Notes: generated from the letters alone by a model not told the origin. Shown: positions 29,645 to 33,643, counted from the first letter of the stretch. The stretch is 64,000 nucleotides of DNA from Escherichia coli (GCF_003334305.1 NZ_QOWS01000016.1), one strand, 5' to 3'. A program made the numbers and translations.

Positions 29645-30760
29645 ATGAAAAAGCGGAAAACCGTGAAGAAGCGTTACGTTATTGCGCTGGTGATAGTCAT
29701 CGCCGGACTGATTACGTTATGGAGAATTCTTAACGCACCCGTGCCGACTTATCAGACACTGATTGTGCGCCCCGGTGATTTACAGCAAAGCGTGCTGGCG
29801 ACCGGAAAGCTGGACGCGCTGCGTAAGGTTGACGTGGGCGCGCAGGTCAGCGGTCAGTTGAAAACTCTGTCGGTGGCGATTGGCGATAAAGTAAAAAAAG
29901 ACCAGCTTTTAGGGGTTATTGATCCTGAACAGGCTGAAAACCAGATTAAGGAGGTCGAAGCAACGCTGATGGAGCTACGTGCGCAGCGGCAGCAGGCGGA
30001 AGCGGAGCTGAAACTGGCGCGGGTGACGTATTCCCGTCAGCAACGTCTGGCACAAACGCAGGCGGTTTCACAGCAGGATCTCGACACCGCCGCGACGGAG
30101 ATGGCTGTGAAACAGGCGCAAATTGGCACCATTGACGCGCAAATCAAGCGCAATCAGGCCTCTCTCGATACGGCTAAAACCAATCTCGATTACACTCGCA
30201 TCGTTGCCCCGATGGCCGGGGAAGTCACGCAAATCACCACTCTGCAAGGCCAGACGGTGATTGCCGCACAACAAGCACCGAACATTCTGACGCTGGCAGA
30301 TATGAGCACCATGCTGGTAAAAGCGCAGGTTTCTGAAGCGGATGTAATCCACCTGAAGCCGGGGCAAAAAGCCTGGTTTACGGTACTTGGCGATCCACTG
30401 ACGCGCTACGAGGGGCAAATCAAGGATGTACTACCGACGCCGGAAAAGGTTAACGACGCTATTTTCTATTACGCCCGTTTTGAAGTCCCCAACCCCAATG
30501 GTTTGCTGCGGCTGGATATGACTGCGCAAGTGCATATTCAGCTCACCGATGTGAAAAATGTGCTGACGATCCCTCTGTCGGCGTTAGGCGATCCGGTTGG
30601 CGATAATCGTTATAAAGTCAAATTGTTGCGTAATGGTGAAACACGCGAGCGTGAAGTGACGATTGGCGCACGTAACGATACCGATGTTGAGATTGTCAAA
30701 GGGCTTGAAGCGGGCGATGAAGTGGTGATTGGTGAGGCCAAACCAGGAGCTGCACAATGA
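29645..30760 (+). CDS. macA: Macrolide efflux membrane fusion protein MacA
   Basis: ORF track 29618..30760 trimmed to ATG at 29645 ([18 protein letters not shown]...), 371 aa; coiled-coil periplasmic adaptor. Confidence 0.9.
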
Positions 30761-32703
30761 CGCCTTTGCTCGAATTAAAGGATATTCGTCGCAGCTATCC
30801 TGCCGGTGATGAGCAGGTTGAGGTGCTGAAGGGCATCACCCTCGATATTTATGCCGGTGAGATGGTAGCGATTGTTGGCGCTTCAGGTTCCGGTAAATCG
30901 ACCCTGATGAATATTCTCGGCTGTCTGGATAAGGCCACCAGCGGCACCTATCGCGTCGCCGGTCAGGATGTTGCCACACTGGACGCCGATGCGCTGGCGC
31001 AACTGCGCCGCGAGCATTTCGGCTTTATTTTCCAGCGTTACCATTTACTTTCGCATTTAACCGCCGAGCAGAACGTTGAAGTACCCGCCGTCTATGCCGG
31101 TCTTGAGCGGAAACAGCGGCTGCTTCGCGCCCAGGGGTTACTGCAACGACTGGGGCTGGAAGACCGTACAGAGTATTATCCGGCACAGCTTTCGGGTGGT
31201 CAGCAACAGCGCGTCAGCATCGCGCGGGCATTGATGAACGGCGGTCAGGTAATTCTTGCCGATGAACCAACCGGCGCACTGGACAGCCATTCTGGCGAAG
31301 AGGTGATGGCGATCCTGCATCAGCTGCGCGATCGCGGGCATACGGTGATTATCGTCACCCACGATCCGCAGGTCGCTGCTCAGGCCGAGCGGGTGATCGA
31401 AATTCGCGACGGCGAAATTGTGCGCAATCCTCCCGCCATTGAAAAAGTGAATGTTGCTGGCGGGACGGAGCCTGTTGTCAACACGGTGTCTGGCTGGCGG
31501 CAGTTTGTCAGCGGTTTTAACGAGGCGCTGACGATGGCATGGCGGGCGCTGGCAGCGAATAAAATGCGTACTTTACTGACCATGCTGGGGATTATTATCG
31601 GTATTGCGTCGGTGGTTTCCATTGTCGTGGTGGGTGACGCCGCCAAACAAATGGTGCTGGCGGATATTCGTTCTATTGGTACGAATACTATTGATGTCTA
31701 TCCCGGGAAAGATTTTGGCGATGACGATCCGCAATATCAGCAGGCGCTGAAGTACGACGACTTAATCGCCATCCAAAAACAACCGTGGGTCGCCTCAGCC
31801 ACACCTGCCGTCTCGCAAAACCTGCGCCTGCGTTATAACAATGTTGATGTTGCTGCCAGTGCCAATGGCGTGAGCGGCGATTATTTTAATGTCTATGGCA
31901 TGACCTTCAGTGAAGGAAACACCTTTAATCAGGAGCAGCTGAACGGTCGTGCGCAGGTCGTGGTTCTCGACAGTAATACTCGCCGCCAGCTTTTCCCCCA
32001 TAAAGCAGATGTGGTTGGCGAGGTGATTCTGGTCGGCAATATGCCCGCCAGAGTCATTGGTGTGGCGGAAGAAAAACAGTCGATGTTTGGTAGCAGTAAA
32101 GTGCTGCGTGTCTGGCTACCTTACAGCACGATGTCCGGGCGAGTTATGGGCCAGTCGTGGCTGAACTCCATTACTGTCAGGGTAAAAGAAGGATTTGACA
32201 GCGCCGAGGCGGAACAGCAACTCACGCGTTTACTTTCACTGCGCCACGGAAAGAAGGATTTCTTTACCTGGAACATGGACGGCGTCTTGAAAACTGTTGA
32301 AAAGACCACACGTACTTTACAACTGTTTCTGACGCTGGTGGCGGTGATTTCGCTGGTGGTGGGCGGTATTGGTGTAATGAATATTATGCTGGTGTCAGTG
32401 ACCGAGCGGACGCGGGAAATTGGCATTCGCATGGCTGTAGGTGCGCGAGCAAGCGATGTTTTGCAACAGTTCCTGATCGAAGCCGTACTGGTTTGCCTGG
32501 TGGGTGGCGCGTTGGGAATAACTCTGTCACTGTTAATTGCTTTCACCTTGCAGCTTTTCTTACCCGGCTGGGAGATTGGTTTTTCACCGTTGGCACTGCT
32601 GCTGGCGTTTCTCTGCTCGACGGCCACCGGGATTTTATTTGGATGGTTACCCGCACGAAATGCGGCACGACTGGATCCAGTAGATGCTCTGGCACGAGAG
32701 TAA
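30757..32703 (+). CDS. macB: Macrolide efflux ABC transporter MacB (ATPase-permease fusion)
   Basis: 648-aa ORF overlapping macA stop (ATGA); Walker [10 protein letters not shown], signature LSGGQQQR, C-terminal FtsX-type permease. Confidence 0.9.
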
Positions 32704-32711
32704 TTTTTGAG

Positions 32712-32745
32712 ATAAAAATGCCAGCCGATCGGGCTGGCATTTTGC
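32712..32745. terminator. Bidirectional terminator between macB and cspD
   Basis: ATGCCAGCC-gatcg-GGCTGGCAT stem flanked by A-run upstream and T-run downstream. Confidence 0.65.
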
Positions 32746-32775: not shown

Positions 32776-33000
32776 CTATGCGACTGCCGCTTCTACTTCG
32801 ACGGGCACAATAACACTGGCGTGATTGCCTTTTGGCCCCTGGTGGACATCAAACTGAACGGATTGTCCAGCTTTTAGCGTTCTGTAACCATCCATCTGAA
32901 TGGTGGAATAATGAGCGAAAATATCTTCGCCGCCGCCTTCAGGGCAGATGAAACCAAACCCTTTGGCATTGTTGAACCACTTAACAGTACCCTTTTCCAT
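32776..33000 (-). CDS. cspD: Cold-shock-like protein CspD
   Basis: ORF track 32776..33030 (TTG-extended) trimmed to ATG at 33000 (MEKGTVKWFNNAKGFGFI...), 74 aa; RNP1-like KGFGFI motif. Confidence 0.9.
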   Translation of the reverse strand: MEKGTVKWFNNAKGFGFICPEGGGEDIFAHYSTIQMDGYRTLKAGQSVQFDVHQGPKGNHASVIVPVEVEAAVA

Positions 33001-33322
33001 GCTTCGACATCCTTCGCAAATCTTATACAAGTAAGATGGAATAAACCGGGGTCAGAGAGGGGGCTGTTCAAAACCTCGCCAACTCTAGAAATACAATTTA
33101 GAGAATTAGGGCGAGCCGTCAAGCGTTTGACAGGGGCCAGGGGGCAGGTATGAATCAAAAATTTGAAGCAGTTAACGCTATTGACAGGAATGTGACAGAT
33201 GTCGCTGATGCCAACGATAGATGATAGTTATCTATCATGTGGAGTAGATTGGTCAGGCAAATAAGCTCTTGTCAGCGGCAGGGCGTTCTGCCGATAACCG
33301 TAATCGAAGATGATAACTGACA

Positions 33323-33643
33323 ATGGGTAAAACGAACGACTGGCTGGACTTTGATCAACTGGCGGAAGAAAAAGTTCGCGACGCGCTAAAACCGCCATCT
33401 ATGTATAAAGTGATATTAGTCAATGATGATTACACTCCGATGGAGTTTGTTATTGACGTGTTACAAAAATTCTTTTCTTATGATGTAGAACGTGCAACGC
33501 AATTGATGCTCGCTGTTCACTACCAGGGGAAGGCCATTTGCGGAGTCTTTACCGCCGAGGTTGCAGAAACCAAAGTGGCGATGGTGAACAAGTACGCGAG
33601 GGAGAATGAGCATCCATTGCTGTGTACGCTAGAAAAAGCCTGA
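33323..33643 (+). CDS. clpS: ClpA adaptor protein ClpS
   Basis: 106-aa ORF immediately upstream of clpA; recognised as ClpS. Confidence 0.9.

Follow-up and report, generated by a model that had tools for sequence, protein, structure and literature searches.

The window analysed here is a stretch of 64,000 nucleotides of Escherichia coli DNA (NZ_QOWS01000016.1), in which macB, cspD, clpS and clpA follow one another (Table 1). Window coordinates equal those of NC_000913.2 minus 888813 and those of U00096.3 minus 889590, the offset being anchored on cspD and clpS, and K-12 MG1655 is identical to the window over 33141-33303, with no indels across a 1-kb region. Upstream of clpS lies a small dyad, which has a single exact match within the 64-kb window, 10 nt to the left of the position (33226-33247) that a preliminary description had given for it. 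The distance from the dyad to the clpS ATG (33323) is 86 nt, in agreement with the roughly 80 bp estimated there. The nested inverted repeats described in the dyad are both real and both perfect, with 7-nt arms: GATAGAT/ATCTATC (33216-22 and 33230-36) encloses a 7-nt gap, and ATGATAG/CTATCAT (33221-27 and 33232-38) a 4-nt gap, each arm of this second repeat being one base longer than the TGATAG...CTATCA originally reported. The placement in the cspD-clpS intergenic region takes no account of the annotated small gene yljB, which stops inside the left arm. Both its stop TGA (33222-24) and the in-frame TAG that follows (33225-27) fall within the dyad on translation, thus the region is not simply intergenic.

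Perfect 7-nt inverted repeats with a gap of at most 10 nt are common, with 54 in the 64-kb window (0.84 per kb), and 14% of random 320-nt sequences hold at least one. Overlapping pairs are rare: no second one occurs in the window, and 0.2% of random sequences have such a pair. The two repeats are not independent of each other, since one word, GATAG, is used twice directly and once inverted.

Table 1. Genes, transcription starts, promoter elements and attachment-site sequences around the dyad upstream of clpS (window coordinates)
Feature	Position	Strand	Remarks
macB	30757-32703	+	
TSS clpS;clpA	32727	+	103 reads (Cho et al. 2014)
TSS clpS;clpA	32770	+	1011 reads (Cho et al. 2014)
cspD	32776-33000	-	
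TSS cspD	33086	-	1398 reads (Cho et al. 2014; also in Kim 2012 table)
yljB, 24-aa small protein	33150..33224	+	RefSeq annotation; translation
Dyad, GATAGATGATAGTTATCTATCA	33216..33237		unique exact match; two inverted repeats
Left arm (B), GATAGAT	33216..33222		presumptive integrase core-type site; attP counterpart ATAAAT
17-bp block, ATAGATGATAGTTATCT	33217..33233		1.3-2 bits per position (37 sequences)
Second repeat, ATGATAG-TTAT-CTATCAT	33221..33238		coincides with the segment common to both junctions and the empty site
clpS P1	33221..33257	+	-35 ATGATA 33221-26, 18-nt spacer, -10 TAGATT 33245-50, TSS G33257
Central 7 bp, GATAGTT	33223..33229		presumptive overlap region; identical in attB, attP, attL and attR
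clpS P2	33229..33241	+	-10-like TATCTA 33229-34 (putative hexamer assignment), TSS G33241
Right arm (B'), ATCTATC	33230..33236		attP counterpart ATTTAT(C); 33234-36 poorly conserved across genera
TSS clpS;clpA	33241	+	77 reads; NC_000913.2 922054 (Cho et al. 2014)
TSS clpS;clpA	33257	+	166 reads; NC_000913.2 922070 (Cho et al. 2014)
clpS coding sequence, 3' of the site	33323..33643	+	
TSS clpA	33418	+	10 reads (Cho et al. 2014)
attB			...CCAACGATAGAT GATAGTT ATCTATCATGTGG...; core ATAGAT-GATAGTT-ATCTAT
attL			...CCAACGATAGAT GATAGTT ATTTATCATCTAG...
attR			...AAATGATATAAAT GATAGTT ATCTATCATGTGG...
attP, reconstructed from attR-left and attL-right			...GATATAAAT GATAGTT ATTTATCATCTAG...; core ATAAAT-GATAGTT-ATTTAT

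Promoters and transcription starts around the dyad

Transcription start sites (TSSs) were taken from Table S6 of the sigma-factor network paper (Cho et al. 2014), in which the two proximal clpS starts at 33241 and 33257 are assigned to both sigma70 and sigmaS, with ChIP signals; these proximal starts are absent from the TSS table of Kim 2012. TAGATT occupies -12 to -7 of the start at 33257, which lies exactly 7 nt after the hexamer, and had been singled out from conservation alone, ahead of the match with the TSS table. Its variants TAAATT, TAGAGT and TACATT all keep TAnAnT (T-12, A-11, T-7), and no indels occur in the spacer. The putative -35 of P1, ATGATA, matches the consensus at four of six positions, falls below the threshold of a consensus scan and is no better conserved than its flanks. 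The start at 33241 places TATCTA at -12 to -7. At the empty site, clpS is transcribed from the TSSs at 33257 and 33241, the dyad spanning -41 to -20 of the stronger proximal promoter and -25 to -4 of the weaker. Its centre lies at about -140 from the cspD TSS, too far for a simple cspD operator.

Several further features of the locus were observed. The starts at 32727 and 32770 lie just past the macB terminator and run antisense through the whole of cspD; the latter has the most reads among the clpS-assigned starts, and its transcript would carry yljB in a leader of about 550 nt and could disturb cspD as well as the proximal clpS promoters. At 33092-33100 the invariant TACAATTTAGA includes the cspD -10 TAAATT on the minus strand, overlapped by 3 bp by a plus-strand -10-like TACAAT (33092-97, five of six positions). 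The two elements possibly form a bidirectional promoter, from which yljB could be transcribed; the TSS tables examined hold no plus-strand start at 33092-33100. The clpS 5' UTR contains a GC-rich hairpin at 33271-33298 (CGGCAG-GGCGTT-CTGCCG) with a fold z-score of only -0.7, and other genera have different hairpin-capable sequences at this position. The 3' side of the hairpin, GCCGATAA, corresponds to the sigma28 -10 consensus. Term-seq 3' ends at 33620 (+), 297 nt into clpS and 54 nt before the clpA start, were present in both growth conditions listed and suggest processing or attenuation between clpS and clpA.

The small gene yljB

Published work found yljB by initiation-complex ribosome profiling, validated it by western blot and reported that a small ORF of Salmonella is homologous to it. 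The N-terminal half of yljB has a different reading frame in Klebsiella- and Leclercia-like sequences, and 17 of 37 enterobacterial sequences have no ATG ORF ending at the yljB stop. Coding constraint on YljB was thus rejected as the cause of conservation at the dyad, since the frame varies or is absent while the nucleotide block persists. A separate block within yljB, CAAAA(A)TTTGAAGCAGTTAACGCTATTG at 33155-33183, is shared by a much wider range of lineages than the dyad, with slight variants in Yersinia, Serratia and Rahnella; a 1-nt indel in its A-run shifts the yljB frame between lineages, so that the constraint acts on the DNA and not on the YljB protein. A CRP site reported for the cspD promoter presumably overlaps this block.

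In one E. coli genome (NZ_CP101274.1, L155) a 2-nt deletion in the left arm, equivalent to 33216-33217, leaves an annotated YljB of 22 aa and a palindrome with arms of only 5 bp, and could serve as a natural test of promoter and attB function.

Conservation of the site across Enterobacteriaceae and within E. coli

Regions upstream of clpS were gathered from species-representative genomes and from metagenome contigs found via the neighbouring conserved block, giving an alignment of 37 unique gap-free enterobacterial sequences in which the selection pattern forces ATAG and TAT; an unbiased alignment of 11 species has the same invariant columns, with ATAG (33217-20) invariant. The 17-bp block is kept in Escherichia and in Citrobacter-, Klebsiella-, Enterobacter-, Leclercia-like and related sequences; those of Pantoea/Erwinia-like type and of Yersinia, Serratia and Rahnella do not have it at all. 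T33240 and GTAGATT (33244-50) are nearly invariant, the interval from the block to the hexamer is free of indels, and positions 33234-36 are almost free (0.26-0.9 bits in the 37 sequences). Within the proximal promoter, ATAG (-40 to -37) and the spacer motif TTATCT (-29 to -24) are more conserved than the putative -35.

The palindrome is perfect, with seven of seven pairs complementary, in E. coli and E. albertii only. Among the 37 sequences, complementarity is kept at the outer pairs of the first repeat in 10, 13 and 25, and at the middle pairs of the second repeat in 11 and 18. In each of these pairs the left partner is fixed and the right one drifts, and conservation is no lower in the centre than in the arms. 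Such one-sided conservation would be the pattern of a promoter, not that of a symmetric operator.

Within E. coli, the 44 nt at 33210-33253 differ from the window in 672 of 5,425 genomes, compared with 107 for the adjacent 5' UTR segment, thus invariance within the species was rejected as a sign of constraint. Sampled variants include G33239A, the pair C33212T and G33247A, which turns the -10 into TAAATT, and a 2-nt deletion in the left arm. In some sampled genomes homology stops abruptly at about 33217-33220, where a mobile element lies between yljB and clpS.

Islands between yljB and clpS

A junction query made of the yljB 3' end, attL and the 5' end of the integrase gene (int) matched over its whole length in 367 of 5,426 complete E. 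coli genomes, an occupancy of 6.8%, and this number agrees with the 368 genomes lacking an intact empty site. Genomes with the empty site match the attL query only up to 33237. Occupied sites were seen in E. coli only.

Strain LH50-c carries an island of about 10.47 kb at this site, which resembles a phage-inducible chromosomal island (PICI) and encodes a tyrosine integrase, an HTH regulator, an Icd-like protein, DUF4222, primase, SSB, PerC, ProQ/FinO and a small terminase. The island of isolate AF4, of about 14.49 kb, resembles a capsid-forming PICI (cf-PICI); its early module is as in LH50-c, and its late genes encode major capsid, prohead protease, portal, connector, HNH, TerS and TerL. Neither island has tail or lysis genes in the RefSeq annotation. 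The published description of cf-PICIs gives a size of 10-18 kb, integrase, regulator and primase modules and packaging genes, without tail or lysis genes. Going by their annotation only, the two islands agree with this description, and we regard both as phage satellites with PICI-like and cf-PICI-like gene sets. A limited literature search linked no named published PICI to the site, which PICI catalogues may already describe. In CFT073, the host of EcCICFT073, the site is empty.

Both island strains hold a second mobile element by the tRNA-Ser gene downstream of clpA (L158, 9313-10515; L159, 9078-12037), one with a tyrosine integrase and the other with Mor-family and hypothetical genes, so that the clpS-clpA operon can have integrative elements on both sides.

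Attachment sites, crossover and integrase

On either side of the islands of LH50-c and AF4, the match to the empty site breaks off within the dyad. The left junction, attL, equals attB through 33231, followed by T at 33232 and TATCA, and attR equals attB from 33221 on; attL combines the left arm of attB with the right arm of attP, and attR the left arm of attP with the right arm of attB. The two parental sites, attB and attP, share 11 bp of identity (33221-33231), bounded by mismatches at 33220 (G/A) and 33232 (C/T). Since 33220 and 33232 are partners in the repeat with the 7-nt gap, inverted arms around GATAGTT are kept in both attB and attP. Both strand exchanges lie between 33220 and 33232, because attL has G33220 and T33232 and attR has the reverse, and by this comparison of sequences the crossover is placed within 33221-33231, an interval that would also fit other overlaps of 6-8 bp.

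The reconstructed attP was matched at 71 of 71 nt in an IMG/VR metagenome contig of 10,780 nt (L170), 182 nt upstream of int, with flanks matching the right end of the island at 96 of 96 nt and the left end at 395 of 400 nt. As this contig joins both island ends through attP, an excised or circular form of the island exists. The attP flanks contain TAGATTAAT-type repeats, with TAGTTAAT present five times (two tandem pairs and one inverted copy) and TGTTCG four times, which would be arm-type sites of the kind expected.

The integrase gene adjoins yljB in both islands, starting 180 nt after the yljB stop, and encodes 412 aa; the two proteins (WP_000092879.1 and WP_001576601.1) are 95% identical to each other. 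Pfam domains are an N-terminal Arm-DNA-bind_3 (PF13356, 4.6e-16), a central domain and Phage_integrase (PF00589, 3.8e-17), and the protein matches a PHROG integrase (1e-67). Its identity to the integrases of deposited phage records is only 33-48%, with none closer than 48%. A sister group in IMG/VR (L193-L241) has 403-aa integrases that are 76-79% identical to the clpS-site integrase; as these have no GATAGTT core upstream of int, they must target a different chromosomal site, and they would form a useful contrast set for mapping specificity determinants.

Discussion

Integrases of the lambda/P4 type are heterobivalent and act on two inverted core-type sites around a 6-8-bp overlap. We consider it likely that the dyad upstream of clpS is the attB core (B-O-B') of such an integrase, encoded by a phage satellite, and that it lies atop the clpS core promoter and the yljB stops. 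By analogy, two integrase protomers would bind the inverted arms (ATAGAT/ATCTAT in attB, ATAAAT/ATTTAT in attP), strand exchange would take place at the edges of the 7-bp overlap GATAGTT, and the N-terminal arm-binding domain would hold the repeated arm sites in attP; the dyad symmetry would reflect a need of the integrase and not of the host. The assignment of the arms as putative core sites and of GATAGTT as the putative overlap follows the architecture of the site. Like the lambda/P4-type systems, the site has inverted arms of 6-7 bp, a 7-bp centre identical in attB and attP, hybrid attL and attR, repeated arm-type motifs in both attP flanks and an integrase with arm-binding N-terminal and catalytic domains, whose gene adjoins attL. 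Unlike them, its target is a promoter and the 3' end of a small ORF instead of a tRNA gene, and the integrase is distant from those deposited for phages.

The islands are likewise similar to PICIs and cf-PICIs in size (10.5 and 14.5 kb), in the order int, HTH regulator, Icd-like, DUF4222, primase and SSB, and in a morphogenesis end with TerS alone or with capsid, protease, portal, connector, HNH, TerS and TerL; the likeness is one of annotated genes only. In this class, induction and packaging depend on a helper phage, and the attP-bearing contig bears on excision or circularisation only. Tyrosine-integrase attB cores, PICI and cf-PICI elements and sigma70 promoters are each of a textbook kind, and it is the overlap of promoter, small-ORF stop and att site that is neat.

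Host constraint on the region is independent of the integrase, as 93% of the genomes have the site empty and the block is conserved in genera in which no island was seen. Of 21 distinct 23-mers from orthologous sites, 11 have the overlap GATAGTT unchanged and three have the full ATAGAT-GATAGTT-ATCTAT core, from Escherichia and Klebsiella-like sequences. The host keeps the 17-bp block for reasons of its own, among which promoter function is the most plausible, though it explains the conservation only in part. The clpS site resembles sigma70/sigmaS promoters with a weak -35 in its TSS, its TAnAnT at -12 to -7, its fixed spacing and the conservation of the key -10 positions across genera, and differs from them in that its most conserved bases, ATAG and TTATCT, are non-canonical, unless TTATCT is the -10 of P2.

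It might be argued that the locus is a promoter and nothing else, the symmetry being fortuitous: the clpS promoter, with its AT-rich upstream half, and the yljB stops would together yield a palindrome from repeated GATAG and TATC words, and the integrase would need a short identical stretch but not inverted arms. The frequency of single 7-nt inverted repeats given above, the derivation of the nested repeats from one word used three times, the fit of the mapped TSSs and the drift of the right arm across genera under a conserved block and -10 all agree with this account. However, attP has inverted arms of its own and differs from attB at exactly two symmetric positions, which is unexpected by chance, and integrases of the family to which the domains point typically use inverted core sites. 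We therefore regard mere coincidence as rather improbable.

A still less probable reading is the one put forward in the preliminary description, an operator for a dimeric transcriptional regulator, in which a host factor would repress clpS through the dyad or through a mini-dyad AGAT-N7-ATCT at -41 to -20. The position over the -35 and spacer is the classic one for a repressor and is shared, together with the symmetry, with LexA-, Fur- and FNR-type operators; in addition, the conservation of the 17-bp block exceeds what a weak -35 would require, and AGAT and ATCT are kept in 32-36 of 37 sequences. On the other hand, the clpS dyad differs from those operators in that it has neither symmetric conservation nor a motif match. 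A symmetric operator is not supported by a right arm that drifts beside a conserved left half and block; the conservation in relatives by which the operator was to be judged is one that the dyad fails to show, and 33210-33253 is not especially invariant within E. coli either. We compared the dyad with 17 consensus sequences, and found none convincing for Fur, FNR, CRP, ArgR, NsrR, Zur, MntR and LexA, nor for PhoB, ArcA, IHF, TrpR, MqsA, Nac/LTTR, HipB and PdhR. The best fits were FNR-like (8/10), PhoB-like (12/18), ATA-N9-TAT and Fur 7-1-7 (10/14), with uncorrected P values of 0.02-0.05; none survives correction for 17 tests. MqsA has been connected with a palindrome of the cspD promoter, although its control of cspD is disputed in the literature; the dyad does not fit the MqsA consensus. 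The published PhoB ChIP-seq table lists a site, TGTCACATTCCTGTCAAT (minus strand, 33180-33197), inside yljB and 20-40 bp upstream of the dyad, with little change of cspD and clpS RNA in the phoB mutant, and lists none at the dyad; the parts searched of the yTF ChIP-exo supplement hold expression rows only for these genes, and no binding rows. What stands of the original proposal is a symmetric protein-recognition site in regulatory DNA, as the dyad overlaps two clpS promoters, while a host regulator as its binder is not supported. An additional host factor may nevertheless bind the block.

We set aside as very improbable an RNA hairpin in the long yljB-carrying transcripts that would hold the UGA in its stem and affect yljB termination, clpS coupling or RNA stability: a 9-bp stem is predicted (-8.3 kcal/mol, z about -3) and the starts at 32727 and 32770 feed clpS;clpA units that would include yljB and the dyad, but the stem is AU-rich and has no U-tract, and changes in the right arm are not compensated, a single possible case of covariation apart. 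Moreover, many lineages with the block have no yljB frame or a different one, and the hairpin is missing from P1 and P2 transcripts, which begin within the dyad or beyond it. A terminator scan reported nothing at the dyad, Term-seq data have no RNA 3' end there and compensatory changes were not seen, thus an intrinsic terminator or structured RNA was rejected.

The small palindrome upstream of clpS is most likely an insertion spot of phage satellites and not the operator of a regulator. On integration as an attB core, attL retains the yljB stop codon, and attR retains ATGATA, the spacer, TAGATT and both TSS positions, while the DNA upstream of about -37 is swapped for island DNA. At occupied loci, clpS lies 10-14 kb from yljB, from the PhoB site at 33180-97 and from the distal TSSs. 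It is conceivable, if doubtful, that integration puts ClpS/ClpA expression under altered control in about 7% of E. coli strains, with the integrase as a de facto repressor or modulator, or that the right arm was imprinted by the satellite. If the former is true, clpS-clpA would be cut off from the PhoB site, the conserved upstream blocks, yljB and the distal TSSs, which give most of the clpS-assigned reads; the sites of the integrase (and of an excisionase) would lie over the clpS -35, and the integrase would modulate the N-degron adaptor in island-bearing cells. As for imprinting, the Escherichia-specific right arm TATCAT has the same sequence as the P' arm of the satellite and may have been left by past cycles of integration and excision, which would explain why the palindrome is perfect only in Escherichia.

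The base-level coordinates of attB, attP, attL and attR can be used to flag PICI and cf-PICI islands at yljB/clpS, and the att assignment warns against reading the palindrome as a regulator site. It also raises the question of whether carriage of an island alters the expression of ClpS/ClpA, and with it N-degron proteolysis. One stretch of 22 bp thus serves as a promoter core, as the end of a small gene and as a satellite site used in about one in 15 sequenced E. coli, an example of a satellite that targets a conserved promoter without destroying it.
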